Source: Lophium mytilinum
Taxonomy: Eukaryota
Assembly: GCA_010093605.1 (NCBI GenBank)
Contig: MU004203.1
Span: 86,156-150,155 of the forward strand
DNA length: 64,000 bases
Direction of reading: 5' to 3'
Positions 3,944-55,191 of this stretch are shown here, piece by piece. The notes under the pieces are model-generated. The model worked only from the letters and a program-made list of their open reading frames with translations, was not told the origin of the DNA and made no database searches. A program made the translations under genes and the position numbers. Each line of letters opens with the position of its first letter. Within the stretch, counting starts at the first letter, position 1.

Positions 3944-6900
3944 ATGCGGAACTGTCTCCGAGAGAACCCCAAGAAGCGCCAACTTCAAGGCAGCCTGCCC
4001 AATTCACTCAAGCCAGCGGTCGATATAGAAGCGCCAGCGACGTCTTCCGAAAATATGACCGTACCGACCGAGAGGACCACTGGACGCGCAAAAAAAGCCG
4101 CCGCGAGACAAGAGCCGCCAATACCGCTACTCAATATAGTGCCACTCGCCAACATCTTAGCTAGAGCAGCGGCAGAAGATTCTGCTCCGCTGCCTCTACA
4201 GGTCGGCACAGGAGGAGGCAGCTGTGGAGGAAGCAATTTGCGCGGCGAAGGCATGACGGCCCATGAGATCCGTCAGATGAAAAACGCGCGCCTCTTGAAT
4301 CAAAAGAACCACGCCGTACTACCCAGACTGCTTAGCCTTGGAGAGCAACAGGCACTGGCGAGGTACAATGCAAAAGATGAGGATGAGGCCGAAGATAATG
4401 TAGCGACATTGGAGCGCCAGCGAGAAGCGCGACTTGTAAGTAACTCCATCCTGTGCTGATTTGAAGGCGATGTTGACAATACTAAGGCCCTTGACCCTCT
4501 CAAGCCCCGTGCGACTCCTACCCCCTCATTTCGTCCGGGACAAAACGATACAGCCTACATAAGCAGTATCTATAGAGAACTCATTTTTGGGGAGAGACGC
4601 GTGCAGGATGACTTAGCTGTGGCTTCTAAGTCAGCTATCCCTGACTTTGGTGGATCCTCGTCCAGTACCCCAAAAGTCGCCAACAGTGCCATTCCCACTA
4701 CCGATCAAGACCAAGAACTTCCTCGCGAGAACGAACTCCCAGATCCCGAGGATGTCCTATCAGCCGCGGAGAGAATAGAGCGAAACGAACACTACACTCC
4801 GTGCGGTCGACTCGGCGATGAAGATGGATCCCTTGGTTGGAACTTCGAGCGCGACTGGACTATTGGCAACTACCTCGAGGACGCCTCGTTCATCTCGTAC
4901 ACGTTCGTCAATCTTCTTCATCAAGACGGGAAGCCTGCCAGACCTGCGAGGCCAACACCAGCCTCAGCCCACCCCACTGACACTGGAAACATCTTCGACC
5001 CGACCCTTATACCTGTAATCAACGTCGGTCATGTCGATCCAAGCTTTTACGGAGATGGAATCGTTGTTGATTCCAAGGGGATCATAATGGGTTGCTGGAA
5101 GTGGGAGGAATCTGGGGAGGATCTCTACGTCTGGTGTGACGACTGCAAGTCCAAGGGGGTGCATGATCATTGGTACCAACCGCGGTGTTATTACACCTGT
5201 CCTCATTTCAACGAGCTTGAGGATGCCACCAAAGAGCGCGAGCGTTTCAGGATGGTTTCTCGCCATCACGGTCTCCAAATGCCCTTCGGGTGCAAGATGT
5301 CCAAAGATGTCGCGCGGAGGTTTGGGGTGATCTATGATCATGCCAAAGCTGTCAATGCCAGCAAGAAAGGCAAGATGGCGATGACAAAGATAGATCTTCA
5401 GACACAAGCTCTCGCCCCTCTACGAAAGTATGGGAATCAACCAGTCCCGTATCAAGCCACCGGGTCCGGTTCTACGCAAGAACCCCAGATGGAGGACATC
5501 TTTGTAAAGGTACCGAAGGACCTGAACACCCTCATGCGTACCGACCTTGTTGAGGAGCAAAGAGTCAACTTCGACTATCTTCTCGAGAGCATCAAACATT
5601 TGCAGAAGCTCCTGGTGCCCATTGAGGAGGCTCTGAATGATATGCCTATTCAAGATCGGCCAAAATTCAGAATGCCTCCACATCTGGGTCATCGCAGCTC
5701 GTCTGTTCCGATGATTGGACTGCGTCGGCTCTTCACAAAAGTAACTGGAGACAGTATCTGGGCTGAGCTGTATGCTCGTCCCCACGTGGCAGTTCCCACG
5801 CTCGTCGAGCTTTTGCGGGAAAAGCTAGCAAGCGTGCAGCAGAAGAAGGCGGAGCGAAAGGGGGAGTGGCACATTGCAGAGCGTCAGCTCCGAGAGCTGA
5901 TGAACAAGTGGCGCGAGTATCACAACCGCCAGCTCGCGGCTTCGTTGGCCGCGATTGGCGAGAGTGGTGCGTCGACTAACGACAATGTGCTCGCCATTGA
6001 GGACCCTTCCGATCAGGCCGTGGAGAGTCAGGATATAGGTGCTATTAATACCGTTGCCACGAATGACGGGAACGAAGTAGAAGAAGTTGACACACCCGCC
6101 ATCGAAGGGACAGCAAAGGAGCTCGACGAAGAGGCTACCGAGCTACCTACCAGGTTCGAAAATACCAGTGGGCCGGGAGAACCCCATGACATGGAAGTAG
6201 ATACTGTGGGTACTGGAACCACACCAACAGGCATTAGCCTTGAACCACAACCTATATTCAACTTCGCCAGAGACACAAAGAAGAGCAGGGGGCTCTTGGC
6301 TTCAAGAGTCACCGTGGCGACCGCAGGGTCTGGCATGAAGTCCAGCAAAACCAGCACCGGAAAGACTGCGAATAGCAAGGTCCTTGGCAACCATGTGGTG
6401 AAACAAAAGCTAGCTCCTTCTAGGATGGGCCTCCGGAGTCTAGCAAAAGCTGCACATGCTGCTACAGTCGAGGACCGCAACGCAGTGGGAGAAAATGTCA
6501 GTGAACCCGCCGCTTCTGAAGAAGAAACTGGCGCAGCAGCTGTCACTCTAGCTGAGTCGGAAGACGCGGTTGGTACTGAAACCGACCGTGATGATCGCCC
6601 AGATACTGACACGGGGTCTGCGCGACCTACCCTTATTGTGGTTCTCAAGATAGGCCACAGTACCGTAGCTCAGCAGCTTCTGAGATTGGCCACGGACAGC
6701 GCCGTCAACGTGGACAGCCCAAGGATCGAGGGCCGAGTTCTTCGCAAGAGGAAGAGACACCCGCTCGACGAGGGAGAGGACAATGAGTCTAGCATAAACT
6801 CGGAAAGCATTCACGGAGGTCATGCTAACGATGGCGTCAACGCCCTCTCCGAAAACGGTGGCCAAGGGTCAACAGGAGTGAAGGTTAATGCTTTCAAAGA

Positions 6901-7984
6901 GAAGGCGCCGCCTCGAAAGAAAGCAAAAACCAGTGCTCAGTCAGCTGGGCCGGCTCCGGGCATGGTCAATCCGGTACTTGCTCAGCAAGGCACTACACAA
7001 AATGCGTCAGAAGTCCCCAGGGACAACGCACAGCTGGATATGAACGAAGAAGGCGATACCGCCGAAGACGACAAGGAATGGGAGATTATCACCCCCGGTG
7101 AGGGCAGGTACAAAATCAACGAAGAACGCTCCATGACTCTCCAGCGGCGTCACAAGATTTCTGGAACCGTGCAGTCCATCACCTACACCCATGCCGATGA
7201 CGTAGACTGGGCTTTGAACATGTGGATCACGCGACTGAACGCCTGGCGGCGTCAGTGCATTCGCCGCTTTGGCGGTGAGCACGTAGCGGGTTACGACCGA
7301 CAGAAGTGGTCCAAGGAGGACATCGCTTGGGTCAGGGATGCCATCGCCAAGCAGTTTGATAGGCGAGAGAAGGCAGGGGAGAACGTGAAGAAGAGTCCTC
7401 CTTGGGCCGAGATTTACATGGCATTCGTGGTAGCCCATCCTGGGACTCATCGCACCCAGAGGGCTCTGTCGTGCATGGCTATGCGGCAGATTATGCCGGA
7501 GCTGGTGCTAGCTAAGAAGAACAAGCATGAGGGGGAGGGACAGGCGGATACCGCTGAGGGAGACATAGATTCTGATGAGGGTGAGAGTGACGACGCGGAA
7601 GACGAGGCGGAGGTGGGAGACATCGCGCCGAACAACAATGCCAGGACAACCCCTTTCGTCGCCGTGCGTCGAGAGGGCGATCGAGTGAAGCTCCGCCTTA
7701 CGGGCTTGAGGTCGCTCGCGAACTCTGACAAAGTCGAACGTAGAAACGGAGAACGTTCCTCCAGTCGTGTTCAAATGCAGCTCATTGTAGCAAATGCCAG
7801 GAATGGACCTGTTGGCGGTAAGAAGCGCAAGATCGCAAATCGCGATGATGAGTATATCTCTCCCGCGCGGTCGTCAAAGAGAATAAAGACGGCATCCGCT
7901 AAGGCTGATGACGACGAAGTGATGGAAGATGGTGGAGTCGGAGCGAATGCACACGAGAACGAAGAGGTCGAAGAAGAATTGTAG
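3944..7984 (+). CDS. Family member 1 (about 1329 aa; exons 3944-4435, 4487-7984): novel Cys domain + Sin3-HID-like segment + Myb/SANT-like domain
   Basis: ORFs 3833..4459 and 4601..7984 join in frame across a GTAAGT..AAG intron (4436-4486). Motifs GDGIVVDSKGIIMGCWK, CDDC..CYYTC, EEQRVNFDYLLES..PHVAVPTLVELLREK and DW..RLNAWRRQ..WSKED..W..RTQRAL are shared with the paralogues. Confidence 0.85.
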
Positions 7985-10893: not shown

Positions 10894-11558
10894 GAAGGAT
10901 GAAGTCTACCTCAAGGCTCGTGCTGGACTTCGTCCCCGAGGCCGTCTACCGCGCCTCCCGGTACTTCAACAAAAGGAAGACTGTAATGCGCCATCCTCGA
11001 GTCAAACTCTATATCTGCGCGCTCTTTCGCTCCCTCACGTACATACACTCACAAGTGTCTGCCCCGGAACGGTCTACTGCGCCTCCCGATGACTTTGTTT
11101 CAACAAGCTGAAGACTGTATGGCGATCCGCGAAGTCAAGCTCTATGTCTACCAGTTGTTCCGTTCCCTCGCGTACATACACTCACAAGTGTGTNNNNNNN
11201 NNNTTCAACAAGCTGAAGACTGTATGGCGATCCGCGAAGTCAAGCTCTATGTCTACCAGTTGTTCCGTTCCCTCGCGTACATACACTCACAAGTGTGTGC
11301 CCTCGACCGTTTACCGCGCCTCCCGAAGATCTTGTTCAACAAGCTGAAGACTGTATGGCGATCCGCGAAGTCAAGCTCTATATCTACCGGTTGTTCCGCT
11401 CCCTCGCGTACATACACTCACATGTGTGCGGCCCCGAAACCGTCTACCGCGCCTCCCGCGGATCGTTCGTCAACAAGCTGAAGACTGTATGTGGATTCTC
11501 GAAGTCAAGCTCTATGTCCACCAGCTGTTCCGCTCCCTCGTGTACATACACTCACATG
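10894..11558 (+). pseudogene. GSK3: GSK-3 kinase exon fragment amplified in tandem (about 130-bp unit, 4-5 visible copies)
   Basis: [30 protein letters not shown](V/I)YQLFRSLAYIHSQ matches GSK-3 subdomains V-VIa; frameshifted, with no HRDIKPQN catalytic loop. Confidence 0.88.
11194..11203. other. Assembly gap (10 N)
   Basis: Run of n inside the GSK-3 repeat. Confidence 1.
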
Positions 11559-13848
11559 TCCTGGTGGCTTGGAGGAGGGATGGGGTGAGGAGGACGGTTT
11601 GGGTTTTTCTTTTGGATAGTGTTTCGGTTTGGAATAATGGAAAAGGTCTGAGGACCGTTGTTTCTCTGCGCAAGATCATTGCACAGTGCATATGTGGTGA
11701 TTTATAATGAGGTCGTGATACATTGTTGCCGCTGTTTGAAGCGCGTTGATCGCAGTTTGGATCATCTTGAGCTGATGCTTCATTTACTAACGCTGAATCA
11801 GAGCGAAGTATCTAGGATAGGCATTCATACAGGAGCTTTAGCTTGGCTAACTTCAGGTAATGGTATTCGTCGATCACGATTAGTAGTCAGGTTTGAGTTT
11901 GGCGTGAGCGACGAGCCATGGTTGACGTATGGACCGGTCCAACCTAGTATCAACCTCAAGCAAACTGCAACTCGGATAGGGGGAGCGATAAGATTGATAT
12001 GGTTTTCTTTCCTGTATCACCCAAGGCTTAATCATACAACTGTTTCTACGACCCCAAAAGACCGGGACTCGCCAGCCAACTTCGTGATCACCCCGCGAGC
12101 GAATTTCCAATCAACCAAGATCATGATCATCTAGTAATTTAAAACAGGGATAACTGAAGAGCTAACTGTCTCGTCCCCTCTGCCTCGTCCTTTGTCGCTC
12201 GTTTTCTGAACAGCATCCTCATGTACTCCACTCGATCCCACGTCCGCTCCAATCCGCCATCGGCGACCAACACCACTGCGGTAGTTTCCTTACCTTGGTC
12301 GAAACTGTGGATATATACGCAGAAAGGATAGTCGTATCTTCGGACTGCGAAGAGCCTATGAATAGTCCGCGATAGTGGACGAGGTGCCGCTTGGGAAGCA
12401 GCGGAGGCCACCTGAGATGAATTCTCGAACAGACCATCGAGTCAACGCGGTTGAGGTCTGGATGTTGCATCGTCGCAAGCGACGCGTTGAGAAGGTGGGT
12501 AGGTTGGTTAATATACTCGGATGGATGGCAGGGAGCTCACAAGGTACGCTGTCGCTGTTCGAACCGAATCAGCCCTCCTGTTCACCAGACAGTTTTTCCT
12601 TTGCTGAGCGCGATGCCTAGGCTAGTATGCCTGCGTCGTGGTGTTTCCATGACTTTACCGACGACACTGCTCTAACGAACCCTCTCAATCCCTTCTTTAT
12701 GAGCTTCGAGATTACTTAGGTGTTGCCGGAGAACTACAAATCTCAACTTATCGTCGAATTGAGGAGGATAATCGCTGAGTTAGCCTCCATCCATGCCCCT
12801 GGAAAAGATATCTTTGACATGCACCGTACGTAATCGCGCCGACCCCCGACAAGAAGTCTTTCCTCGACTCCCATTACGTGCTCAGCACTACCGGTCCCAT
12901 CATAGTGCGGTGAGGTAGACAGAAATGTGGTTGGAAAAAGGACAAGAAAGAAAGAAGAAAGTAAAAGGATAGTACGCCTGACACATCTCTCGTTAGCTTT
13001 AATTAATCTACCGACGTTGCTTCCTATTGACAAATGCGGTCTCTAAAGGAGCCCTACACATTGATTAGATAGAACAGATGGGCTGAGACTGCCCCCGCAG
13101 ATTGAGAGACGCTCTAGAAAAGCTGAAGCAGAAATGGAGTTTGACGGTACCCAGTGGCAAGTGCGCGATGTTAGTCTTCTATCATAACCTCGACTCATAT
13201 CTAAATAAAGACACTTTCGAAAGCCATGGGAATTAAACGGGTGTGGAGAAGTAGATTGACCCGCCAATTTTTCTACCACAGTCCCAGCTTCCCAACCCTG
13301 GCAAGTCTCAACACACCTGTCCAACATTCCAGTTTTAACCGCCGTCGTCCGACATGACATAGTAGAAATACCGTAAATAGTTGCCTTAGTCATGGCTATC
13401 AGCTGCAAAAGGCTTCACAGGAGGGAAGGTACAGTCCAGTGAGAAGAATAACAGGGAATTGGTATGTTGTTGTGTTGAACGTCGAATTAGCAACGGGGGG
13501 AACTTCTAGCCAGTGCGAGATATTAGTGCGACTTATTCGCTATGCCTGATTCAAGCTTCAATAGTATCTTTATGCTATTGTCATTCTGTATCATGATCAA
13601 TTGCCGTCATCTTGTTGTAAATTGTTACCATTCCTCCGCATCTCCATCACTCGTCCAGGTAATTAGGCAATGGAGGCCTCGCTCAATGCCAGTCGGCATG
13701 TCAGCCGCTTTGCTTTCCCAAACCCCCGATTTTCCGAGCTCTCCCCCACTCGGTGGATCCCCTCTCGCAACATTGGATCATGTCTTATTAGATGAGGGCA
13801 GGGATCAGCGCTTGTGGAGATGGTATCAATGAGGTGTGATTTGCATAC

Positions 13849-14070
13849 CCAGTTGTTCCATCCAACAGCGAATCCCATGGCCGGGTCGACGTAACGAGAG
13901 CAGTACTGAGGAACGGCGCCAGGGAGGGGGGGCCAGGTGGCCATCTCGCAGAGACAATGCATCATGGCGCATACGGCGAGACCAGTGATGGTATATCCAC
14001 ATATACAGTCCGCAAACCTCGTAGATAGAGCGAGTACTCTCGGCTATGTCCCGATGACGCTTCCGATGCG
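13849..14070 (-). pseudogene. Amino-acid permease (YAT family, proline-permease-like) N-terminal fragment
   Basis: IGSVIGT*..GYTITGLAVCAMMHCLCEMATWPPLPGAVPQYCSRYVDPAMGFAVGWNNW followed by a GTATGC donor; has a stop and is truncated. Confidence 0.8.
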
Positions 14071-39020: not shown

Positions 39021-39392
39021 AAAACGCTATCGAGCCTGGGGGAAGCGGCATTTACGCTCATGGTAAGCGCCAAGCTAGGTAGGCTTCACAGCGAGACGAA
39101 TAGCTTCTCAGCCGTTCATGTGTCGAAACAGAGAAGTCCCTCATATTCGAGCGGTCGGGGCCAACGGGTGGGTGAAACAAAAGAAGTCATAGGTCCGCGG
39201 TGTGGGCTTGGGGTTCCAAGAAGAGGGCCAATGCAATGGTAAGTTCTGTTTCTTCGAGTGGAGTGATCTTGGACACGCTAACGTCTTACAAACCAGACTA
39301 CGTCCGCTCTGTAGAGATATGCTTTCGCAGCATTCATGAAGGGCAGCACACGCGCCCAAAACGCAAGATGTTTCCCCCAAGACATGTTGAGT

Positions 39393-40484: not shown

Positions 40485-41570
40485 ATGCCCCCAAAACGCA
40501 GCTCCCGCGGCAAAGCCCGCGCCGAACCCTCCAATCCCGCTCCTGTAAGCCTCCCCTTTGCTATCATCTTAACTAGAGCTGACTAGCCTCAGCCCCGCGT
40601 CCGACCAGGAATTCTGCCCCGTCACCGGGGCCGCGCGTATTTCACCGACGAATTGCTGCCCTACGACCCCGACGCCACGCGCTACATCTATAGAAACTTT
40701 GGACGGTACCCGGAGGCGGAGTGGCGCGCTGAGGAGGTGGCGTCTTCGCGCCAAAGAGACGTAATGGGCGATATGTTGGCTTCTGTGGGGTTTGAGGCTA
40801 CGATGGCTGAAGGGTTGCACTATTTGAACACTTTGCCCGCAACTCACGCACGCGTTGTGCCTAGCCGCGCACGCCCTGGCCGCCTTGTCGTGCCTGTTGT
40901 TCCTGTTGTCGCTGCCGTAGAGGAGGAAGAGGGTGGAGAAATGGTGGAAGAAGAAGCGGAAGAGGCCGTAGAAGAAGCAGAGAAAGCTGAAGAAGAGGAG
41001 AAAGAGGAGTTAGAAGAAGCGGAACAAGAGGAGGGAGAGGAAGAGAACGATGACGACGAAGAGGACGAAGACACCACCACCGCCGGCCCCAGCACGTCCA
41101 AGAAGTTCTGCCCTAGTGAACAAAACCGCGACTTCAAGCAGAACCCCCTGGTACCCGGCGTTCCTGATCCGGCCCTCTTCGTAGTACGAGGGACCTTCAA
41201 GGGCGTTGATACCACCAGAACCTACCCCGGCGTGGCGAACTTCGACTGGAACAACAAGAAGTCGGTCAAGACGCTGCTTAACTGGCGTAGCCAGATCTAC
41301 CTACGCGCTGGGGCCTCTAATAAGAAGGTGAGGTTCTTCTCCGCTGCCGAGACCCAGTGGTTGGAACACTACTGGACTCAAGTCCTCAGCGACGTGCGCA
41401 GCGACCCGGCGGCTGGATTGCCATCCCAGGCCGATATCACTGCCGCCTTCAACGCGGCCTTTCCGGCCTCCCACCGCACCCAAGCGTCGGTCAGCAGTGC
41501 GATCAGTCGGCCCGGATCTAAGTGCAGGGGTCTGAAGGAAGAGGCGGAGAGGGTGATTCGGGACCGTTGA
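40485..41570 (+). CDS. Short family member (about 345 aa; intron 40545-40592) with an acidic tract and only the Myb/SANT-like domain
   Basis: MPPKRSSRGK exon joins ORF 40653..41570 in frame; FDWNNKKSVKTLLNWRSQI..FSAAETQWL..ITAAFNAAFP..RTQASV aligns with the C-termini of members 1-3. Confidence 0.78.
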
Positions 41571-44500
41571 GGGGAGTGGCGAGAGGGGGGCTTGATATCG
41601 GGGATGGTGCGGAGAGGTTTTTGGGGAGTAGATAGTCATTTGGAGGTCCCTGGACGGTGCGGAGTGTCTGGCTGTGTGCCTGTCTCCTTGGTCCGATTCT
41701 GGTGGGTTTGGAGCTGTGCGGCGGTATAAGCCTGGCAATCGAAACTGTTTGCGCTGGCTCTGAGCCGACTGTCTGATGTAGCTACCTTGGACTGATATTT
41801 TTGGGAATCTGTGAATGATACGAAGATATATGAAACCACGCACAATGTAGTTCGCTAACCCATTAAGTATCACAACAGACGTTCAGCAGGCGCACGGCAA
41901 TGGGTACTTTACAGATATGAGAGTCATTCAAGCGTCTACTTGCCCCGGATCTGGGTTGGAGCAAAGGAACTTCTTTTGGAATATTAAGGATCAGGATTGA
42001 GAAATGCTTGACCCAGTTGCCGGAAGCATGATGTTCATTGTCTCCCGCTTTTGGGACGACGTAGGATATAGGTGGAAAAGGCAGTCTCCGAAATCGAAAG
42101 TACGCCAATGAGAATCTATGGTTGTCTGCTTAGGTACAAACCTTTATATCTTTGCCTCTGCTACTGTATAGTACCAGGTCATGAGTTTGGGCACCTGGGT
42201 ATACCAGGACTTTGGCTTCACTCTTGCTCCATTGACACCACTGTAAGGAGCGCCTCAGGCAACATGACCTTGACCAGTCAAAGAGCGGTCTAGTTTCCAC
42301 TGGGTCGAATTCTATATTGCATCTCGAGTTCCACACCCATTATTCATCCTTCCAGCCCCGTTCTTTGATCTTTCTCATCTGCAGGATTGCTCCCCGGTTA
42401 AAAACCACTTCCAGGGCGGAGGGTCCAGCGCAGCTACTAGTCATTGAGTATATGTTGGTGGTGGACGAGGAGGAGGAGGAGGAGGCATCACTCGCTATGA
42501 GCAAATCCATGGCGAGATAGATGATGAAGGAAGGAGCGGAGCTAAGAGGGAGGCACGATAACTCTCATGAGTGCGGTACAGTGATCTACTGATAAATTAA
42601 CTAGGGGAATTCGTTTTGAATGCCGTAAGAATCGAATCAAGGTGAATTGAAATTCAACCATGCCTGATCAGACTGGTACGAACGCATAGGCGGAGTCCCT
42701 ATCTTTGTGTATTCCAGCAAGGTCGAGAAGCAGGACTCGGTCCTCGGTAGTTATCAAACCAAGAGGTTCCCGTTTGCCGGTTGTGAGCAGTCTGGAGTTC
42801 GAGTGCGGAGTTGAGCGCCCCTCGATTGTCTTTCGTCTCACAATCTCATTGGCGTCGATTGTGTTTTGGGCCTGTGATGGTATTTTTGATATTCCAATAT
42901 CTTCTGTAGCGTTCGCCGGCGTCTTCGAGTCTAGAGTCGTCTTGCCCTACGTATTGAAATTGAGAGGGAGCCCGAATGCCTTTTCTGAGGCCCGGCGTGA
43001 GGCTGTCAGTTGCGCAAAAGCTTTCCTAAGCCAGAGATTCAACCCTTCAGCTTGTCTTGAGAATGACCCGTCCAGCCAAATAACATCTTTGGTAGGCCCC
43101 ATCATCTGCTCGTCTTTGTCTGATGCCTCGTTCACTTCCCAGGCAAGGCCACGCGCGATTGCCCGTGGGGCCGTGGCCAGGAAGAGTGTCGTCATATGTG
43201 ATCCGCAGAGGTATGGGTGATGCTCAAGCATCTCTAGAAGGACGGTGACATACCTGTAGTCGGTAAATTTACAGGGCTCAGCCGCGGAGAGAAGCATTGG
43301 TCGCCGATATTTTGAAAGCAGAGGGCGGCTGAGAGGTCGAGGAATGCGCCTGGGGCAGAACTTTTGGGGGTACCACATGATGAGCAATTATATCATTTTG
43401 CGATGTAGTTCGTGATTTACTCTTCTTGCTAGGTCGTATGTATCGTCTCAAAGTCTTTGCGTACACATCATTTTCCGCCTTTACGTCATTGCTTTACGAA
43501 GTGAATTTCCAAAATAGGGAACTAGGTTTTCCACATGTATCATAAGCGTACAATGCGTATTTTTCTCACTCGACCATTATCCTTCGAAGGTCTAAATATA
43601 CTTGAAATCTCGATGTTGGGTGTAAGATCTCCAATAACTCGGGATGCCCAATTATAGTAATTTTTTTAGTTTAGTACTTACTGTTTTCTTTTTATCATAC
43701 TGCCCTGAATAACGCCGCAAACTTGAGTGCTCGGCCTGACTATCATCGTCTTCATGCCATCCAGCGTTAGCGGTGGCCTCTCACAAATCCAGCTTGCAGT
43801 CACTTGAACCGCGTGTTCCTTGAATCAGGTCACGCGTCCAAAGTGAAGACAAATGATATCCCATGTGGAGATCCTTGCCAGAAGGGTACAGCCTGGCAAC
43901 TAATTTCTTGCCGCATCCACGATAAGCAAACAAGACTATGCCCAATTTCATGGAGCTCTTCCGCCCAGTTGTCTCAACAATGGTGGCGGAAGGTTTCGAT
44001 GTGGGATTGAGCCTTCGGGAAGTACCGTCCATGGTGCATGAAGCCACGCCATTCGTATCTGGCCGGTGGAAGCCGTTAGCACGAAGATTGACGCAAGGAA
44101 GCGGAGGAAACTCAAGATGCTGAAGGAAGGAGATTCAACGGAAGAAGAGCAAGCCGCGAGAGGAAGCCGAAGTAAATGCAGAGGGGGAGCCGGAAGAGGC
44201 AGAAGTCCTGCTGGGAAGGACACTCTGACTTTACCAGATCTCCTTTGCTATAAGCCCCTTTCGCCTTCACTCGTCTCTCCTCTCAGCTGGCAAATCTCGA
44301 GCCTGCCTTCGTGGTTGTGTGAATGTCCTTCCTTCATATACTTGCCTAGGGACATCACCACAAAGCCTTCTCCATACGCCTTTCCATCACGGAGATCGGT
44401 TGTTGGGCTCCGTTGAGGTGCTTCTTTCTTTCCAGGAAGCAGCCTTCCATCTTTAGGAGAGGGCCAAAAGCCGACGCCGACCTATACCATGGATCGCTTC

Positions 44501-45681
44501 TTCCAAGGCAAGTCAGACAGTCAACTACTTGATGGGCGACCCTGTCTCCCGTGAGCGGAATCCTTTAAATCAACTCTAGCAGATTGTTCCTCGAACAAAT
44601 CAGCAGGGCAGCCAGCAACCCCAGAATCGGTGCGCGTTCCTCCTCTCATCAAGGATCTCTTGTTTCTCCTGCCAACGGATTCGAACAATGAACCATCCTC
44701 CAATATGTAGAACAGCTCCTTGAAAGTGTTTTGTGATATAATGGCTTTCGGGCAGCGGCGAGGAGGACGAAGGCGGAGGAATAGGAATGGTTCGACGGCC
44801 ATCCGGGCTCTTGTTGATCAAAGGGATGTAGTTGTGGGGCTAAGGATTTAGGTGGGCTCGAAGGATGTGCGGGTTTCGGGTTGTTCTGGAATCGTCAAAG
44901 CCATTCGAGAACAAACAATATACTTCTCTTGCCAAAAAAGATGTGTATGCGGAGTGACACCGTGATGTGCGAGGGCTTGGGCTGGGTTCGCGTCATTCTG
45001 TTTTCCATTCGCTCAATCATGGAAGTGACGAGATAGAGATGGACCCAGCGCTGTCAAAACGTGCGTTCCGTAATCCTTGGATGCGCGCCACGCTCAGTGA
45101 AGTTGAATAGGGGCAATACCTGACAGATGCTTCTAGGGCTTTCAGATTTTGATGCCGGAGGTGCCGCCGCTGCCTAAGACTGAGGACAATGGTCGGGAGG
45201 AGGCGGGAGAGGTCGCGATTGGCTTCAGGTCAAGGACTTCTCGCCGCTGAGAAGATTTGAGACAGAAGAAAGCCGTAAGACGAGGATAACGCACCCGCGG
45301 AGGTCCAAATGATGTGGTCACGGTGGTGTTGTTGTTGCTGCGTGATCGCCGCGTGTTCACTGAGGCGATGCTGCTCAAGTCCTCACGATTGGCCTACAGC
45401 ACAACAAAAAGCGGTAGAAAGCCTTTGAATTAGCTGCAAGAGGGTACGAGGCCGTATTCTTAGACATTAGATACGTGAAGCAGGCCGATCGGCTCGAGCG
45501 TGGTGTTGCGCCAGTTCGCTGTTGCGGCCTACAGCCAACGAAACAAAATCGAAAAAAATGAACGAAAAGTGCAAAAAGATTCGCCCGAAAAGCCTCATTT
45601 CACCACCTTTTTGGCGACCAGCAACACCAAAAGAAAGGGAAATCAACCCAGAAGCCCGTATATGAAGCCTTTATAAAGTGC

Positions 45682-45860
45682 AAAAAAAATGCAAAAGAGT
45701 TGCAGCCACCAAGGAAGACTATGAGGAAGTCAACCTGGAGACTCAGTCTCTATATCACCAGTCGCCGTGCCGCGCGTCGAACACAAGTACAACAAAGGGA
45801 CGTACCTTGATGAGCAGTGGTAAGGAGTCGAACCTTTCGCCACTGTGCCATTTAAGGCGA
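45682..45860 (-). ncRNA. Candidate Pol III transcript with tRNA-like head (A box + T-arm/B box)
   Basis: Minus strand TTATAAA (45888-45882), TGGCACAGTGG (45850-45840), AAGG-TTCGACT-CCTT arm containing GGTTCGACTCC (45834-45824), and a T8 terminator (45689-45682). Confidence 0.4.
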
Positions 45861-46534
45861 AGGGAGGCCAGAATATTAAGGTTTATAACCATAGGTTCAG
45901 GTCAGATCTCTTTACTTAGTATTATGGGTTGGGGATCTCGCTGCGAGTAGTGCACCCCCACTCAATCAGCCCACGCTCGCCGCACGCCTCCACGGCAACC
46001 ATCTATGCAACCACCGACTCGCCGCCCTACCTAGGCTGGCTCATTATCGGCCTCCACAACGCGACTTGTGTAATTACTATGCGGCGGCACATCAACCACG
46101 AGTCTTACAGTCCATCTCGTCCTTTCTCCTGCAGACAGTGAGCAAGAAGTCCTCCACTCATTTTAAGAATCGGATGCCCCCTAATAGTACCCACGACGCC
46201 GGCAAACATAGTCCCGACAGCAGCAGCTGCCCCGTGCGCATGGTGTTTTGTCGCCAGCTGCCCCTCCTCTGACCCCGACGCCGCCACCACCCGCCCTCAC
46301 TGAACAGCACGAGGCCATCGCAGCCCCTGAGCAGCATGGTAAGCTCATCTCCCTATAGCGACAGCGACCATCAACTTACAGACGTCCAAGAGACAGGTGA
46401 GCGGCACCCCGAGGCGCGTTTTCGCAGCGTCTGCCGCATTGTGCGGGCAAAACCCTCTCCCCCGAGTTCTCCGCCGCATCGCATCTTTGACTCCACAACG
46501 ACCAAGCCCGCGCACTTCGCGGCATCTACCATCC

Positions 46535-47660
46535 CTTTTGACTGGATGGATACCTGCTAGCTAGGCTACCCTTCCAGGTGATGTTGAGTGATCAAGATGG
46601 GAACCCGAGGGATTCCATATTCGGGTGCCTGAACCTTTGTCCTGGTAATGTACAGCCATTGTTTGTCCTACGGTCGATACCGCTGAAATCACCCTACCTT
46701 TTGGCTAGGGGGACACCTGCTGGCTGGGCCACCTTCCACGATGGTATCGATCGATCAAGAGTAAAACCCCTAGCTGAACACCTGCTAGCTAGGGCACCCT
46801 TTACAGTGACGTCAAGCGATCAAGAATGGACACGGAGGAGTCCTATGTCCGACTGTCCACACTAGCGTCCTGGTACTGCAGCAGACAAAACAATGCAAAT
46901 GTCGGCCCAGTGAACGCTGGGCTGCCTTTTGCCTGGCTGAACTGCTGCTGGCTGGAACACCCTCTACGGTGGCATAGATCGATTAAGAAGGAAAGCCGGG
47001 GAGTCCTATATTCGGGTGCTGAAGTCAGTGTGCTGGTAATTCAGCAAAGGCTAGAACGCAAAGATCGATGCAATGGAAGGAGGCTGCCTTTTGACTGGTG
47101 AACACCTGCTGGCTGAGCCGCCCTCTACGGTGGTATCAATTGATCAAGAAGGAAAGCTGGAGAGTTCATATCATGGTGCCTATACTTGCGTTCCGGTACT
47201 GTATGCAAAGGCTAATGCAGTGGAAATTAGGTTGACCTATGACTGGCTAAGTACCTGCTGGCTGAGCTACCCTTTACGGTGGTGTCGATCGATCAACATT
47301 GGTGGCCGATAAGTCCAATATTCAGGTGCCCAAGCTTGTGCCCTGGTATTGCATAGCTATTGTGCCTCCGCCGAAGGCGTGTGAGCAGGGCGCAAAACCC
47401 TTTCTCTTCTGTTAGTTGATGCTTTTCCGTAAGTGCAAGCATGCTGTCTCTTCCCCGGGCTTCGCCGCCCTCTAGACCCTCCTTCGCGAGTCTCGAGGTC
47501 AGGCTGCTGATGACAGGCCATAAGTCTAGGCACATTGCTTGGGGGATCTCTTGGGTTTCGACGGTCTAAACGCAATGTCGAGGCTCATGAAGTGCAGATC
47601 GAACTGTCGCTTGACCGATTAGCTGCTTAGCAGCTATGCTACCCCCTACAGTGGTGTGGA
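46535..47660 (-). repeat. Degenerate about 160-bp satellite (about 7 units), reverse complement of the arrays at 55-61 kb
   Basis: acctgctggctgagc..ccctctacggtggt.tc.atcgatcaa recurs; its reverse complement caccaccgta.agggtagctcagccagcaggt matches units at about 57160 and 58180. Confidence 0.8.
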
Positions 47661-48289
47661 GTGAGTAATATTAAAGCGCGGCAGTGACAGATCCATGTGA
47701 TTAGACTTACGAGTATAGTGTTATAAATAGAAACACCAACACTTTCAATAATCCTCATTCGCCTTCAGGGCAGTCTCTCTCATATTTGCTTGTTACTCTT
47801 TTTCTTCGCTGAACTTCCCCGCCATGAAGGCAAAGCCTGCCCAACTCTCCGCAGCATTGTGCAACCATAGAAATGGTGAACAAAGTGATTTTGCAGAACC
47901 AGCTGCCCCCGGGGAGCTTCCTAGACATCATAACACCACCATCTGTGAATCAGGAGGTGTTGCCCGGCCAGGAGGCCGGAAGGGAGTTCACTGCCAGACA
48001 GCTCCTGCTAGCGTATTTTAGGCACTTTTGCCCCCACCCGCAAGACCTCCGCCTTCTTTACGTCTTCCACGAATATCTACACACTACTGACATTTCTGTG
48101 CTTCTAGAATTGTTTTGTATTGTCGTGTTTGCTTGTGGAATATCCCCTGGCGTTCGTAACTCAGGTTTGTCCCGAAAACGTGTCCTGATATCAAACGAGG
48201 AGATTCGAACGCCCTCGAAACTACAGAATCTCATCTTTCTTCTCGCAATAGCCACTAGACACTCAAGGCTATATCGCGGTGGTCAAAGA

Positions 48290-49130
48290 GCTTACGCGCG
48301 CCTCCTGATATCGACTCCGCCGCCATTTTCCGCCTCCAAACACGAGTCCATCCCGACATCGCGATTTGAACGCTCTTGACTCTGCGGAAACGTACCTGTC
48401 TACTCGCAATAGCAGGTAGACACTTACGGCTATATCAGAGTGTTCAAAGAGCTGCCTCTGCTCTCCTGATATTGACTCCACCTCGATTTCAACCTCCAAA
48501 ACGCATCTCTATATCCAATAACGTGAATTGAATACCTTCGACACTGCAGATTTATGCCTCTCTACTCAAAACAGCAGGTAGACACTTGGTCATATATCAG
48601 AGTGTTCATAGAGCTACCTGTCGCCTCCTAATATTGGCTCCACCTGAATTTCCGCCTCCTAAACGTGTCTCCATACCAGCGACGTGCTTTGAACACCCTC
48701 GATACTGCAGAATCGCACCTGTCCGCTCCCAACTGTATGTAGGGTCTCCCACTTATATCAGGGGGTCCAAAGAGCTGACCCTTGCATCCTAGTTTCAACC
48801 CCACCTCGATCCTCCCCTCAAAACGCATCTCCACATTAACGACGCGATTTCAATACGCCCGACACTGCACAATCGCATCTATCCTCTCGGAACAGTGTGC
48901 AGCGTTTTACGCCTATATTAGGACGTCCAAAAGGCAGACGATTGCCTCCTTGTTTCAACTCCCACTCCATCCTGCTCCGAAAACACGTCTCTATACCAAC
49001 GACGCGATTCTTACACCCTCAACACCGCAGAACGGCATCTGTCCGTTCGCAACCACAGGTAGGGTCTCCCCCCTATATTAGGGCCTTCAGAGAGCTGACG
49101 ATCGCCTCCTAGTTTCAAATTCCTCTCCAA
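48290..49130. repeat. About 161-bp tandem repeat (about 6 copies) immediately upstream of member 3
   Basis: ctcct..(atatt/gtttc)..ctccaaaac..cgcgatt..cactgcaga..caggtag..tatatcag...caaagagct at about 48302, 48462, 48625, 48786, 48946 and 49105. Confidence 0.85.
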
Positions 49131-49485
49131 ATCCCTTCCAAACACCTCAACTTCGTAAGTTCACATCCCCTCTTCGTCGCCGCCCTCTACACATTGTAAA
49201 ACCACACTATACCCCTCCCCCTACCTTCATCTTGTGAATTCACCATCCAGAGGTCCAAATCTAGGCAGCAGAGGCCTGGGCGCGAATTATCTCGCCCTCA
49301 GAGTATTCACTACGAGGCAGCACAACCCAGGTCTTCCAAATACCTCGACCTCCCACCTACAGCTTCTCGTGGGATTTTCATTCATCATCTCCCCACCCAC
49401 CACACCACACCACCTAGCAAACTTTGCAATTGCATCACAACTTCACTCACAATACTGACACGGCTTCAGCCTGTCTTGATAGAAC

Positions 49486-52400
49486 ATGGCCCCCCGCAAG
49501 CGCAAGCAAGCGGAGGTCGAAGACGAAATCGAGAAGCCCGGCGAGACCACTCAGACTGGAAGGCGTACGAAGAAGGCGAAGACTAGGGATGAAAGGGCGA
49601 CAGCTGAGGTACGAAAGGGTCGCCACTCCGTCAACATCAGCGGACAAGCTAACAACAGCCAACAGGCTGATCCAACCAAGACCGGCCCTGTCGCTGCTGG
49701 TGGAGTTACCAAGTCCTCCTTGATAGTCAAGCTTCCTGCGAAAACCTCCTCGACACGCCCCCTTCCTCCACAAGCTCTTCCAATCGTCATTTCCGACGAG
49801 GAAGAAGACGTAGATATGCTAGGCACGCAGCCTCCCCCTCCTCCCCCTCAACAGCGCGTGACTCGCGCGCGAGCGCGCGCGGCGTCTGAAACACCAGACA
49901 TCATGGCACCAGAAGCACCTACCATCATGGCATCACAAGCACCAGCCATCGTGGCACCTCCAGCACCGCCTGTTGTCGAGCCAGTGACTTCCATAAGGCC
50001 TCCTCCAGCACGGCCTATCATCTCACCAATGGGACCCCCAGAGCCTGCTCCAACTCGCGTGCTCCGGGACCGAAAGGCCAAACAGCCCCCCAAAACACTC
50101 CCCCAATCCGCCACCCCTGATGTAGACCAACACTTCGTCGCCGTCGTGGCAACCATCGACGCCGCAACACAGAGCTCCGGTGATGATGAACGCGCAATAC
50201 CCCCAGATGCTGCCCTAACTGGCAAGTCTCTGGGTGGAAAGGCGAAAGTAGCCTCCAAGCCATCCCCCCAATCCACTACCCATGGCGTAGAGCCAGACTG
50301 GGCCGCACGTCTAGCTGCCAATAGGGCAAAGTTACAAGCCTCCGGTGAAGCAGGCCTCATAATAGCCCCAGGCGCCCCCGCACAATCTTCACTCGCAGCC
50401 GCGCGGGGCGCACAGTCCACCAAATTCCCATCACTCGCGAAAGTGGCCGCTGAGTCAGCCCTTAGCGAGGCGTCTTCCGCACCAACCCCAACACAGCGCG
50501 CTCCTCGCATCACCCGAGCTGCAAACAAACGCGCCATCATGGACCCCAAAGTCCGAGCCGCGGAGGCGGAGCAGCAGAAGGCGCTGAGGCAGCGGAACAC
50601 GCAGCGTCTGGGTCGCGTCGAGACCCACCTCAAGAACTTGGCGGGCAGTGGGGTCATGGACCCAGCAGAGCTCCCGGAAGGGCCTCGCGGTAGGGCGAGG
50701 AAGACGAAGAGACCGCCGAAGGATCTCCCCAAGGAGACCGTGCAGGCGCTGGCGAAGACGCAGCCTGCTGGGAAGGCGGAGAAGGTCCGCGAGGACGCTG
50801 TTGCGGCTGCGACAGATGTAAGTATCTCTGTTTTTTCCCCTCTTTATCATGTTGATCATAGTGCTAACAAGACGCAGATGGCAGGAGTCCGAGCTGTTGG
50901 GGTGACACCCACAGCGAGAGTGGCCTTCCTGCCTATCCCCACCGCTGACGACCCCGTCCTTTTTGGGCCAACGAAAGACGGTCCCCAGCCTCTACCCGCC
51001 TCCAAAGATCCTCTGAATTGGACGGCAGCGCGACGACGAGCGGAGAAGATTGGAGAAGAGTCACTGGACCGCAAACTTCGCCTGGGCCTGAGGGCCGAAA
51101 TCGGACTGGCTAGCTACACCACGGTCCACTCCATCGCCCACCTCCTCGACAGCGTCATTTTCATCAAGCATGAAAACCTTGTCGGCATTCACCTCGGCAC
51201 CAAGGCCACGGCATCACAGCGCGGGGATGATTCTCATATCCCTGTTGGAGACGAGGGCCGCCTAGACACCGCGGCGCTTGGAGACGGCATCGTCGTCGAC
51301 AAGAACGGCATGATTGTGGGAACGTACAAGGACATCCAGCTGTGGAACGAGAAGTACAAACCCAGCTGCGACAGCTGCACCGCCAAAGGGAAAGAAGTGT
51401 GTACTTACCATTGCCCGGGCTTCTACGCCGAACCGCTGTTGAAGTACCCAACAACTCCGTCCCGCCTCGTTGCACTCCACAACAACTTGGTAGCATACGG
51501 CATCGACAACCGCATTCATCCGTACGGACTGGAAAAGCTCGGCGAGACATACGACCACGAAGAAACCCTCCGCATCGCGCGCGAACCGATGACGGAGTGG
51601 GTAGAGAACCGGAAGAAGATGACAGCCGGCGAGAGAAAGATCGCCGACGAGAACGACTACAGCAGCTACGGCTATTTCGGTGCTCCCAACTGGGCTGATG
51701 AGGAGCGGATCAGCCTTCAGATCAAAGAGGAAGCATGCAGGTCGATGATCGAACGCCTCCGAAACATGCAGCGCCAGATCGATCTCCTACCGCCAGATCA
51801 GCGACCGAACTTCGTCCCTCCCCCGAACTTCGGCGAAGACCTGTCCGGCGGTCAGAGTGAGCATACCCCCAAACTCGCTCTCCGCAACGCCTGTGGCCGC
51901 GAGTCCGGCAACAAGATGTACAGCGAGCTCCTCGCGCGAGCCTCGGTTGCTGTTCCTCTCGTGCTGGCTAAGCTCAAGGAGTACTGGGAGTTTCTCAAGG
52001 AATACGACCTCAAATATGTTGAGGCGAGGTTGAGGGCAGACCGAGACTACCGCGCCATGCAGGCATACTGGGCTCTGCATGAAACAGAATCCGCGTACAG
52101 CGTGAGGACCAAGGCACGAAATCTTCGAGCGGCGGATCTCGAGGAGGCTCGAAACGAAGCAGCCGCCAGAACTCCCGAGGAACAAGTAGAATGGGATGAG
52201 GACAACCGTCGCCGAGAACTCCTAGAGGCTCGAGTCCAGGCCGAGAATCGTGGTTTCTCCGTGGAAGAAATGGCACGAGGCTCTCGCATCGACGAGGAAG
52301 CCTTCAACAAGAAAGATGTTGAGCAGTGGGAGATCAGCGCAGCCCACTGTGCCACCAAACTCAGGCTAGAGGGCATGGAGAACCGCAACGGCGCCTTCGC

Positions 52401-55191
52401 TCCGCCAACCGTGGACGACAGCCGCGTAGAATCTCGCCGGCAGTATGAGACATCCTCAGTCCGCTTCGACATGCCCACATTCGGACCTCCGAGCTTTGAC
52501 GACCCCATTCGTTCCGCTTCCGTTCCTTCTGATAAGGACATCGGCTTGTGGGCTAGAACAGACATGCCGATCACCCAAGAGATGGTAAAAGGCCTCCAAA
52601 AGCGTGCGCAAGCTGCCTCAGATGTCGCTAAGGCGCTGAATGCTCTGGATACTCCTCCTCCCCAGCCCGTGCAGCGAGAGACTAACGCGGAGAGAGTTGC
52701 CCGTCTGAAGCGAGAATATGAGGCGCGCCAGGCGGACATCAAGAAGTTCGAGGCTAATGCTCAGGTTTCCGACCTTCGCGGAACCGAGCCAGAGAGCGAC
52801 GCGCAAACACCAAACATCGACCTCATCAAGACGACGGCCTCTTCATCAAAAGAGACCCCGCAAGAGTTGAAGGCCCGTCTGAAGCGCGAATATGAAGCGC
52901 GCCAGGCTGAGATCAAGAGCTACGAGGCGAATCCTACACAGTCCGACGTCCGTGGTGATGCTTCCACTGCCTCTGGAGCTCCCAACGTGCACATCACTGG
53001 AACCGGAACCTCCAACGCCATTGTCATCAACGAGGATGATACCCTAAACACTCCCACCGTCACCGGCGAAGACCCAAACACCCCCACCATCACGACCTTC
53101 CCCCGTTCGAAACCAGAGTGGCGAGAGGCCAAGACTGGAGCCAAAACTCGCTCCGGCAAGACGTTGGGCAGCCGAGTCCGAGAGAGCATCGAATACCTTC
53201 CAGACATGCTCAAGAGGCACCATGAACGAGATCACAGCCTCGACACCGCGATCGTCGATTCCACAGACGCTTCCACAGATTCCAGAGACGCTTCTACAGA
53301 TGCTAGAGACGCTTCTACAGATTCCCGAATGCCCGATAACTCGGAGAAGACTCGCTTGGTTACTGTGCCTGTACCAGCGATTGATGCTACCCCGCTCGCC
53401 ACGTCTGCTGAGCAAGGAAATGGCGGTGAGACTCCAGAGGATGTTGTTCAGCAGGCCTTCCCCGAATTGGATGTGGCCATGAGCGATACCCCAGAATTCG
53501 CTGCCATCGATGCGCCGACGCCGACTTCATTAGATCTTGTGAAGGCTATGGATACGCAACTCGAGAAGGCTCCAGCAGTTTCGAAGGCTATAGAGACGGC
53601 ACTCAAGAAGCTCCCAGCGGCTGCCATCGAGAAACCAAAGGCCCTTCCAAAGATGAGCAATGGAGGCGCCATGGCAATGCCATCCGGTTTGGTGATGTTC
53701 CGTCGTTCCACTCCTGCTCTACTTAGCGGAGATGGCTCACTCCAGACTGATGAGTCCGAGAATGTCGAGATGGGAGGTACCGAAGATGCCCTGCCCACCA
53801 AAGCGAAAGGAAAAGCGAAGGGAAAGGAGCCAGCACATTTCGCACCCGTCAGCGCCACCGCCTCATCAAGCAAGATCGAGACCGGCGAGTCCAGCAAGGC
53901 CGGTGCAAGCGGCGCATCCCACAAGCCAGTTGAGACCAACCCAGCGAACATGACCGAAGCCGAGAGAGTTCTCCATGCGTTGAATGAGGGCGCGCTGCAG
54001 AAAGCGATCCAGGACAGCATGAAGGCATCCCATCCGGCCGCGACGACGCTCCAGATTGCAGGCTGGACTCCCGTAAATCCCCCAACTCCTGGCGCTGCCG
54101 GAGTGGAGCAGGATGAAATGGAAGACTACCTGTACGGCGCAGAGAACCTGGAAGAGGATGGCGAGATTTATGTGCCGGACTCAGATCCCGAAGACGACGA
54201 CGACGAGATGAAGGACGACGACGACGAACTAGACTCCCACCACTCCGACTCCGATTTCGACAGCGACAACGACTCCGGTCCCCCCAAGGGCGGCGCCGCG
54301 CTGAACAAAGGCAAGGGAAAAGCTCCAGCCCCAGCCCCCGCGAAACCCAAGCCCACCTACACAGGCAAAGGCAAAGGCAAAGCCGAAGACCCCCCGTCCG
54401 ACGACGACGACGACCTGGACGACCCCGCCCCCGGCAAGAAGCCCAAAGGCCCCTACAAGTTCCTCGCCATCGACCCGCACGAGTACGACGAGCAGGGCGT
54501 GCGCCGCACCAACCCCGACGGCAGCGCCATCCCCTACTTCCGCTTCACGCCCAACGTCGACGACACCGCGCGCCTGACGATCCGCAAGAAGCACCGCAAG
54601 ACGCTGCGGGAGGAGCCGCCGTACGTGTACAAGCACCTCGCGACCATGGACTTCGCGAACAACCAGCACGTCGTGGACGCGAACAAATGGCGGCGCCAGA
54701 TAATGCGGCGCTCGTACCCGGAAGATCGCGTATATGAAATACGCGACGGGTACGAGGCCGAAGAGCGGGAGTTCATGCGGCAGTACGTCCGCGCAGACAT
54801 CGCGGCGCGTGGCGCGGAGACGGTGCGGCGGCGGCCGTTGTGGGAGAACTTGTTCCAAGCGTTCTGCCGCCACTACGTCGGTAATACGCGTAGCAAGCCG
54901 GGGTTGACGTCGTGGTGTGGCCGTGACCAGCAGATCGCGGACATGAAGGGCCTGCCGGTCAAGAAGGCCGGTGTTTCGGCCAAGCAGGCTAAGCTGAACC
55001 TGCTTGCGGCGGTTAAGGCGGAGGGGGAGGGACAGGACGCCGAGGCCCCTCCGCCGCCGCCGAAGCAGGGGATGAAGAGGAAGAAGGAGGAGGATGAGGA
55101 GGATAAGGACGACGACGACGACGACTCTTTCCATCCGGGGAAGAAGGGGAAGAAGGCGAGGAAGGGGAAGAAGCGGGCGAAGAAGGAGTAG
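49486..55191 (+). CDS. Family member 3 (about 1862 aa after likely in-frame introns 49609-49665 and 50818-50877)
   Basis: 1901-codon ORF. GDGIVVDKNGMIVGTYK, CDSC..CTYHC, DEERISLQIKEEACRSMIERL..GGQSE..VAVPLVLAKLKE, DFANN..NKWRRQ..YEAEE..W..F..RSKPGL; acidic and basic low-complexity tail. Confidence 0.9.
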   Translation: MAPRKRKQAEVEDEIEKPGETTQTGRRTKKAKTRDERATAEVRKGRHSVNISGQANNSQQADPTKTGPVAAGGVTKSSLIVKLPAKTSSTRPLPPQALPIVISDEEEDVDMLGTQPPPPPPQQRVTRARARAASETPDIMAPEAPTIMASQAPAIVAPPAPPVVEPVTSIRPPPARPIISPMGPPEPAPTRVLRDRKAKQPPKTLPQSATPDVDQHFVAVVATIDAATQSSGDDERAIPPDAALTGKSLGGKAKVASKPSPQSTTHGVEPDWAARLAANRAKLQASGEAGLIIAPGAPAQSSLAAARGAQSTKFPSLAKVAAESALSEASSAPTPTQRAPRITRAANKRAIMDPKVRAAEAEQQKALRQRNTQRLGRVETHLKNLAGSGVMDPAELPEGPRGRARKTKRPPKDLPKETVQALAKTQPAGKAEKVREDAVAAATDVSISVFSPLYHVDHSANKTQMAGVRAVGVTPTARVAFLPIPTADDPVLFGPTKDGPQPLPASKDPLNWTAARRRAEKIGEESLDRKLRLGLRAEIGLASYTTVHSIAHLLDSVIFIKHENLVGIHLGTKATASQRGDDSHIPVGDEGRLDTAALGDGIVVDKNGMIVGTYKDIQLWNEKYKPSCDSCTAKGKEVCTYHCPGFYAEPLLKYPTTPSRLVALHNNLVAYGIDNRIHPYGLEKLGETYDHEETLRIAREPMTEWVENRKKMTAGERKIADENDYSSYGYFGAPNWADEERISLQIKEEACRSMIERLRNMQRQIDLLPPDQRPNFVPPPNFGEDLSGGQSEHTPKLALRNACGRESGNKMYSELLARASVAVPLVLAKLKEYWEFLKEYDLKYVEARLRADRDYRAMQAYWALHETESAYSVRTKARNLRAADLEEARNEAAARTPEEQVEWDEDNRRRELLEARVQAENRGFSVEEMARGSRIDEEAFNKKDVEQWEISAAHCATKLRLEGMENRNGAFAPPTVDDSRVESRRQYETSSVRFDMPTFGPPSFDDPIRSASVPSDKDIGLWARTDMPITQEMVKGLQKRAQAASDVAKALNALDTPPPQPVQRETNAERVARLKREYEARQADIKKFEANAQVSDLRGTEPESDAQTPNIDLIKTTASSSKETPQELKARLKREYEARQAEIKSYEANPTQSDVRGDASTASGAPNVHITGTGTSNAIVINEDDTLNTPTVTGEDPNTPTITTFPRSKPEWREAKTGAKTRSGKTLGSRVRESIEYLPDMLKRHHERDHSLDTAIVDSTDASTDSRDASTDARDASTDSRMPDNSEKTRLVTVPVPAIDATPLATSAEQGNGGETPEDVVQQAFPELDVAMSDTPEFAAIDAPTPTSLDLVKAMDTQLEKAPAVSKAIETALKKLPAAAIEKPKALPKMSNGGAMAMPSGLVMFRRSTPALLSGDGSLQTDESENVEMGGTEDALPTKAKGKAKGKEPAHFAPVSATASSSKIETGESSKAGASGASHKPVETNPANMTEAERVLHALNEGALQKAIQDSMKASHPAATTLQIAGWTPVNPPTPGAAGVEQDEMEDYLYGAENLEEDGEIYVPDSDPEDDDDEMKDDDDELDSHHSDSDFDSDNDSGPPKGGAALNKGKGKAPAPAPAKPKPTYTGKGKGKAEDPPSDDDDDLDDPAPGKKPKGPYKFLAIDPHEYDEQGVRRTNPDGSAIPYFRFTPNVDDTARLTIRKKHRKTLREEPPYVYKHLATMDFANNQHVVDANKWRRQIMRRSYPEDRVYEIRDGYEAEEREFMRQYVRADIAARGAETVRRRPLWENLFQAFCRHYVGNTRSKPGLTSWCGRDQQIADMKGLPVKKAGVSAKQAKLNLLAAVKAEGEGQDAEAPPPPPKQGMKRKKEEDEEDKDDDDDDSFHPGKKGKKARKGKKRAKKE

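Follow-up and report, generated by a model that had tools for sequence, protein, structure and literature searches.

A 64,000-nucleotide (nt) stretch of the Lophium mytilinum genome (Dothideomycetes, Mytilinidiales; contig MU004203.1), referred to throughout as the window, contains a cluster of three large genes (M1, M2 and M3) and two short ones (S1 and S2) whose products, judged from their sequences, form an undescribed protein family with a new arrangement of domains around a module known from a corepressor. This module, placed in the middle of the large proteins, corresponds to the C-terminal half of the histone deacetylase (HDAC)-interaction domain (HID) of Sin3, a domain that to our knowledge is normally confined to Sin3 itself. 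Since the family has captured a deacetylase-docking piece of Sin3, it probably acts on chromatin, and we tentatively favor, with a probability of roughly 0.45, the reading that this clustered and lineage-restricted family supplies nuclear chromatin adaptors that dock, or compete for, partners of the Sin3 complex.

The three largest stop-to-stop frames of the window span 4460–7984 (plus strand, 1174 amino acids (aa)), 26667–30563 (minus strand, 1298 aa) and 49483–55191 (plus strand, 1902 aa), and the next longest frame besides these encodes 327 aa. They belong to M1 (3944–7984, plus strand; public model of 1329 aa, BU16DRAFT_545382), M2 (26667–30932, minus strand; public model of 1384 aa, BU16DRAFT_601058, a Lophium mytilinum hypothetical protein that is 100% identical) and M3 (49486–55191, plus strand; public model of 1901 aa). 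On the window, the public models map to 3944–7984 for M1, 30911–26670 for M2 (model residues 8–1384), 49486–55188 for M3, 33691–32536 for S1 and 40485–41567 for S2, and the cluster therefore extends over 3944–55191, from the start of M1 to the stop of M3. Each pair of large proteins aligned by BLASTP in two collinear blocks, an N block (~330–570 alignment columns, 24–28% identity, E 2e-20 to 1e-31) and a C block (~120–410 alignment columns, 24–29% identity, E 2e-5 to 2e-31), and a tBLASTn search of the window with the M1–M3 proteins returned the three genes alone. When all open reading frames (ORFs) of at least 30 aa in the window were searched with profiles of the N and C blocks, exactly two further carriers were recovered, with all other matches at E ≥0.18. 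S1 (32536–33691, minus strand; model of 312 aa in two exons) has only the conserved N-domain, without the Cys4 insert described below (ORF 32536–33345, minus strand, E 2.2e-15), and S2 (40485–41570, plus strand; model of 345 aa, P0156, BU16DRAFT_568268) has only the C block (ORF 40587–41567, plus strand, E 1.7e-8). The frames, alignments and profile scan agree with the first-pass annotation of this DNA, which had described three large, intact and diverged paralogues sharing three blocks in common order, and two short genes with a single block each.

The same annotation had noted an intron common to M2 and M3 after the residues ATD, and this too is confirmed by canonical splice signals. Directly behind the Ala-Thr-Asp codons, both genes carry GTAAGT, a CTAAC branch site and CAG, bounding an intron of 54 nt in M2 (29943–29996, minus strand; GAT/GTAAGT...TCTAAC...CAG/CTT) and of 60 nt in M3 (50818–50877, plus strand; GAT/GTAAGT...GCTAAC...CAG/ATG). 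Both introns are in frame and stop-free, such that retention would lengthen the protein by 18 or 20 residues; in the public models, the intron is spliced out of M2 and retained in M3, and an M3 orthologue from Mytilinidion shows a gap exactly at the M3 site.

Evidence for the Sin3 relationship came from profile and single-sequence comparisons as well as from fold. Pfam matched no family in M1 or M2 and gave a single chance-level row in M3. When the three N blocks were combined into one profile and compared with all Protein Data Bank (PDB) sequences, 11 rows were returned, nine of them with E <1e-9, and all nine were Sin3 proteins, including yeast SIN3 (809–918, E 3.5e-12), mouse Sin3a (2n2h_B, E 3.5e-11), S. 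pombe pst1 and pst2, and human SIN3B; every Sin3 match aligned to profile positions 291–404. The M1 segment by itself (5549–5893, plus strand) matched yeast SIN3 810–920 at E 2.3e-8 (8.2e-9 for the best construct) and eight further Sin3 sequences, and the M2 segment by itself (28788–29156, minus strand) matched SIN3B 470–562 at E 3.6e-5, again with eight further Sin3 sequences. The M3 segment (51685–52071, plus strand) found no Sin3 match on its own and is linked through the family alignment only. On P0010, a Sin3 protein, residues 762–874 are covered by the family profile and 706–799 by the Pfam model Sin3_corepress (PF08295); the family thus possesses only the end of the Pfam domain plus ~75 residues past it, which accounts for the missing Pfam match. 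By sequence and fold, the homologous part of Sin3 comprises ~110–130 residues in the C-terminal half of the HID (yeast ~802–930, Sin3A 605–729, Pst1 647–774), and derivation of the middle segment from the Sin3 corepressor, as first proposed from the letters of the DNA, is well founded.

To place the family among known proteins, the N-block profile was run with HMMER against 1.84 billion representative proteins, which yielded 429 matches at E ≤0.001, the best 150 of which were listed; paralogue counts outside the window refer to protein databases. Among these best 150 of 429, seven carry the N-domain, namely the models of M1, M2, M3 and S1, along with P0009 (1959 aa, E 5e-50), P0015 (521 aa) and P0033 (895 aa). 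The remaining 143 match in the Sin3-like part alone. Upon Pfam scanning of 71 of these (all those of 300–1050 aa), every one carried PF08295, the only other families being PAH, Sin3a_C and PAH_ZNF598, and two longer matches are full Sin3; all of these are canonical Sin3 proteins or pieces of such proteins. Carriers of the Sin3-like segment that are not Sin3 are therefore M1, M2, M3 and P0009 among the matches listed and scanned. The C-block profile, used in a word-based search, added the S2 model and P0157, and a further such search with M2 residues 230–620 returned nothing besides M2 itself. P0009 (BDZ99DRAFT_558059) is the orthologue of M3 and P0157 (BDZ99DRAFT_518066) that of S2; both are proteins of Mytilinidion resinicola, a member of the same family as Lophium (Mytilinidiaceae), and both are encoded on one 2.15-Mb contig, an arrangement in another genus that suggests vertical inheritance. 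The Lophium members all share a single contig of 588 kb. P0015 and P0033 combine an N-domain with a C block and have neither the Sin3 segment nor the Cys insert; metagenome scans with these two proteins found no relative. As far as seen, the family appears restricted to Mytilinidiaceae and these two further proteins, and with no Pfam family matching and so few N-domain carriers among the matches listed, the lineage-specific character ascribed to it earlier holds. Among papers naming Lophium mytilinum, the titles listed concern taxonomy or genomics and do not name the family, and a literature search for Sin3_corepress together with Myb found nothing.

The Sin3-like segment retains a recognizable subset of the constrained positions of its source. 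Comparison of 20 Sin3 fragments gave 34 columns that are conserved in 80% or more of them; 13 of these columns are preserved in three or all four of the family members and seven in no member. The acidic N-cap residue and the PP.LG and P..A.P.VL motifs of Sin3 are retained. The corresponding part of Sin3A was solved in complex with Sds3, according to the title of PDB entry 2n2h. PMC10115800 describes contacts of the Pst1 HID with the deacetylase Clr6 through HID1 (residues 615–625 and Tyr755) and HID2 (Glu657), with Glu657 sitting in a basic pocket where other class I HDAC complexes bind inositol phosphate. By alignment register, Glu657 would correspond to the second acidic residue of the family motif EE.R (E, E, D and E in M3, P0009, M2 and M1, respectively). 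The other hallmarks of Sin3 are missing: no PAH repeat (PF02671) was detected in M1–M3 at E ≤1, nor in P0007 and P0009 at E ≤0.1, compared with many of the 71 true Sin3 matches under the same Pfam scan; PF08295, the HID1 half, matched no family member as against all 71 scanned Sin3 proteins; and Pfam found no Sin3a_C (PF16879) in the family proteins. Lacking HID1, PAH and HCR, the family cannot be a Sin3.

Upstream of this segment, the N block contains a family-specific alpha/beta N-domain (M1, 4721–5374, plus strand; M2, 29199–29942, minus strand; M3, 50878–51597, plus strand) with the signature GDGIVVD..G.IVGT.K ... R.VALH ... LG..YDH. Across seven members, 12 of its positions are invariant, including G135, G137, D141, G144, G148, R196, V198, H201, L204 and G222 (M3-block numbering). 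Inserted into it in M1, M2 and M3 are four invariant cysteines of the form C-x2-C-x(7–20)-C-x3-C, spaced as C-x2-C-x16-C-x3-C in M1 (5135–5200), C-x2-C-x20-C-x3-C in M2 (29379–29465) and C-x2-C-x7-C-x3-C in M3 (51367–51414). These cysteines may represent a putative zinc knuckle; no zinc-finger Pfam family matched in M1–M3, and the insert is weakly modeled (predicted local distance difference test (pLDDT) score <50 at 157–160 and 185–191). S1, P0009, P0015 and P0033 keep the N-domain and are devoid of the four cysteines. What had been called a novel Cys domain is thus a real and larger conserved domain, but one in which the Cys4 element is an insert that four members do without. A seven-sequence N-domain profile found nothing below E 0.6 among PDB sequences, and two fold searches with a 398-residue model returned lists filled by the Sin3-like helices.

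The C block (M1, 7067–7507, plus strand; M2, 27012–27458, minus strand, both by BLASTP and profile; M3, 54448–54951, plus strand) folds confidently in a structure model (pLDDT 86.8). Its first ~95 residues form two beta hairpins and a long helix without a match, and its last ~70 residues (about 54736–54951 in M3) are modeled as a three-helix bundle resembling Myb/SANT domains. Foldseek with this model returned nothing (best E 1.9). In an all-against-all structural search, which barely probed the first ~95 residues, residues 97–168 alone matched, and ~15 of 50 rows were of Myb/SANT type, with middling scores below the reliable level. Pfam Myb/SANT models matched none of seven C blocks at E ≤10, nor the whole proteins, and a C-block profile found nothing below E 0.28 among PDB sequences. 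Given middling fold scores and no Pfam or PDB-profile match, the Myb/SANT-like domain of the first-pass annotation is plausible, not established: fold points to it in the last ~70 residues, but sequence profiles do not. Apart from its C block, S2 contains the stretch best conserved between Lophium and Mytilinidion in any member, an N-terminal part (PPRVRPGILPRHRGRAYFTDELLPYDPD.TRYIYRNFGRY; P0156 residues 20–100, ~40540–40790) that is 84–96% identical in windows of 25 residues. No Pfam family matched this part, which also shows no similarity to M1–M3 by tBLASTn against the window.

Trees and orthologue comparisons describe rapid divergence around conserved blocks. In the C-block tree, M3 groups with P0009 (90/89), M1 with M2 (91/99) and S2 with P0157 (100/100); the N-domain tree supports (M3,P0009,(P0015,P0033)) at 96/96 and places M1 and S1 on long branches whose join was flagged unsafe. 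Branches are long throughout both trees. M3 and P0009 share 34% identity overall, rising to 58–66% in the C block and 38–44% in the best N-domain and HID windows, with most linker windows at 8–30%; S2 and P0157 share 70%, and 96% in one N-terminal window. This pattern, which is not a test of the ratio of non-synonymous to synonymous substitution (dN/dS), fits constraint on blocks within an otherwise fast-evolving protein. The earlier proposal that the family is under selection accordingly finds partial support, in intact long frames and in C-block as against linker identity. An 83-nt duplication was also observed within M3 (52699–52781 and 52873–52955; 78% identical), such that ARLKREYEARQA.IK..EAN is encoded two times; a similar sequence, ARIKAEWEARQIEIQQYEAQ, is present in the Mytilinidion orthologue, and the duplicated linker motif is therefore conserved.

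Under the adaptor reading, anchoring to DNA or chromatin would fall to the C block, perhaps together with the N-domain, and docking of a Sin3-complex partner to the HID-like module; this partner would be a helix of the Sds3/Dep1/Rco1 type, an Rpd3-type deacetylase, or both, with deacetylase contact running through the HID2 acidic residue. The protein would then either scaffold local deacetylation independently of Sin3, as an alternative to it, or compete for those partners by titrating them. S1 and S2, each with a single module, would be relatives with a possible modulating effect on the large members. Nuclear residence is suggested by basic clusters, which we take to be nuclear localization signals. 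The strongest competing account, which we consider somewhat unlikely, accepts a real and fast-evolving family in which the Sin3 helices are a reused structural or dimerization piece without any deacetylase link and the C block does not bind DNA. Replacement of seven of the 34 strongly conserved Sin3 columns in all four members would suit such a reuse, as would the loss of HID1, PAH and HCR, the existence of two relatives entirely without the Sin3 segment, the middling Myb/SANT fold scores and the very long branches. On the other side, the Sin3 signature, including the acidic N-cap and the PP.LG and P..A.P.VL motifs, is strong enough to reach E 8e-9 with one sequence, and its retention argues that constraint on the same surfaces has been kept.

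The genomic surroundings bear on a second alternative, already raised in the first-pass annotation, in which the genes encode regulators that travel on, or work for, an accessory or selfish element, for instance in drive or silencing suppression. We regard this as improbable. It draws on a region poor in recognizable genes and containing gene relics, on the confinement of all Lophium members to one 51-kb cluster, on diverged tandem arrays flanking M3 and S2, and on rapid sequence evolution. Among 138 other ORFs of at least 90 aa (Pfam, E ≤0.01), five had a match and all five are fragments, in keeping with the earlier description of neighboring host-gene copies; 150 of the 306 ORFs of 55–89 aa were scanned as well and gave none. 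The matches are a weak Pkinase hit (10987–11478; profile positions 91–117 only), an AA_permease relic (13666–14043, minus strand; 55 residues of a 470-position model), a DEDDh_C exonuclease relic with a Glucosamine_iso piece resembling glucosamine-6-P isomerase (22000–22808, plus strand) and an AAA_11 helicase relic (60333–60791, plus strand; 88 residues), with no intact gene around the permease, DEDDh/Glucosamine_iso or AAA_11 relics. However, the ORFs scanned in the window include no transposase, recombinase, reverse transcriptase or helitron-type gene, no terminal repeats were found within its 64 kb, and there is no signature of repeat-induced point mutation (RIP), the RIP indices being unremarkable. 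The sole long-range DNA repeat, an inverted pair at 1652–1835 and 25703–25886 (88%), is accounted for by two U6 small nuclear RNA genes (Rfam RF00026; 1656–1805, minus strand, 58.9 bits; 25732–25880, plus strand, 56.7 bits) that lie 24 kb apart and enclose M1. Together with the vertical inheritance suggested by the co-located M3 and S2 orthologues, these observations speak against a mobile element; with no transposase, terminal repeats or RIP signature, the proposed tie to a selfish element is left without support. Each U6 gene may carry an insertion or intron, since each spans ~150 nt against a 105-position model. Separately, a tandem repeat at 10965–11559 (131/236-nt period, 85–89% matches) overlies the weak-kinase ORF and looks like a tandemly amplified kinase fragment; the assembly has a 10-N gap at 11194–11203.

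M3 is bracketed by old, diverged tandem arrays (46534–49129 and 55235–61700; periods of 108, 150–151 and 160–164 nt; units 60–90% alike) that have a common 70-nt core, in minus orientation upstream (46534–47673, 7 copies) and in plus orientation downstream (55579–61661, 27 copies). Single cores also flank S2 (40373–40414 and 42217–42283), and no core copies were found near M1, M2 or S1. The best-kept part of the core, ACACCACCGTAAGGAAG, reaches ~1.2 bits per position compared with 0.2–0.4 in the flanks, a difference that arises partly by construction, and CACCGTNAGGAAGRCCTCARC was counted 11 times where 0.01 occurrences would be expected. ACACCACCGTAAGGAAG holds the reverse complement of TAACGG, presumably a Myb recognition core. 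Young tandem repeats additionally lie ~0.8–1.7 kb upstream of S2 (39393–39695, 101 nt x 3, 90% matches; 38823–39014, 96 nt x 2). A more elaborate proposal, to which we give little credence, is a self-contained, locus-linked silencing system in which the C blocks bind the array core and the Sin3-derived module brings a deacetylase or Sds3-type partner without Sin3. The Myb/SANT-like C blocks would recognize the core CACCGTTAGGAAG... (with the reverse complement of TAACGG) of the 108–164-nt arrays, and fast-diverging paralogues would track fast-diverging arrays. If true, this would be a satellite-binding chromatin system built from a corepressor piece.

That the long frames result from annotation artefacts, or represent sequence that is in decay or has no function, as the absence of a recorded RNA run and of any domain known to Pfam might suggest, is very hard to credit in view of frames of 1174–1902 codons against 327 for the next longest unrelated frame, canonical introns at a common position, block-wise conservation in orthologues of another genus and confident models of both predicted domains. 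One sequencing run, whose RNA nature is a guess, contains all sampled M3 words and, compared with 26001–46000, gave only one 205-nt contig, in M2 (29265–29469); no expression conclusion is drawn from either result.

Several known systems offer points of comparison. Corepressors of class I deacetylases with ELM2-SANT or DAD-SANT architecture (MTA1, CoREST, SMRT) provide an analogy, without a sequence relationship, and the docking element would be Sin3-derived in the new family as opposed to ELM2 in the ELM2-SANT corepressors. Myb/SANT-like and trihelix domains (Zeste, GT-1, the TEBP-1 MCD, Reb1 and the c-Myb repeats) gave no Pfam model or Foldseek match to the C block, and the family bundle differs in being preceded by the conserved ~95-residue beta/helix part. 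Should the C blocks bind the flanking arrays, the logic would be comparable to that of CENP-B on alpha-satellite. The family adds two uncharacterized domains foreign to Pfam (the N-domain and the initial half of the C block) and offers a solid and specific lead for Dothideomycetes chromatin biology, although it answers no long-standing question. The closest comparison is with Sin3 (S. cerevisiae Sin3, S. pombe Pst1–3 and mammalian SIN3A/B), with which the family has in common the C-terminal, Sds3-facing HID half, the part that in Sin3 contains the HID2 glutamate. Whereas Sin3 is pan-eukaryotic, the new proteins occur in one fungal family plus P0015 and P0033; they do without the PAH repeats, the N-terminal HID half and Sin3a_C/HCR, and their segment is flanked by two blocks foreign to Pfam. 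With just the Sds3-facing, HID2-bearing half of the HID fused to unrelated domains, the family represents a natural dissection of the Sin3 scaffold, one that could reveal which contacts suffice for docking Sds3-type subunits or a deacetylase and could illustrate how new regulators that evolve rapidly come to incorporate parts of corepressors.

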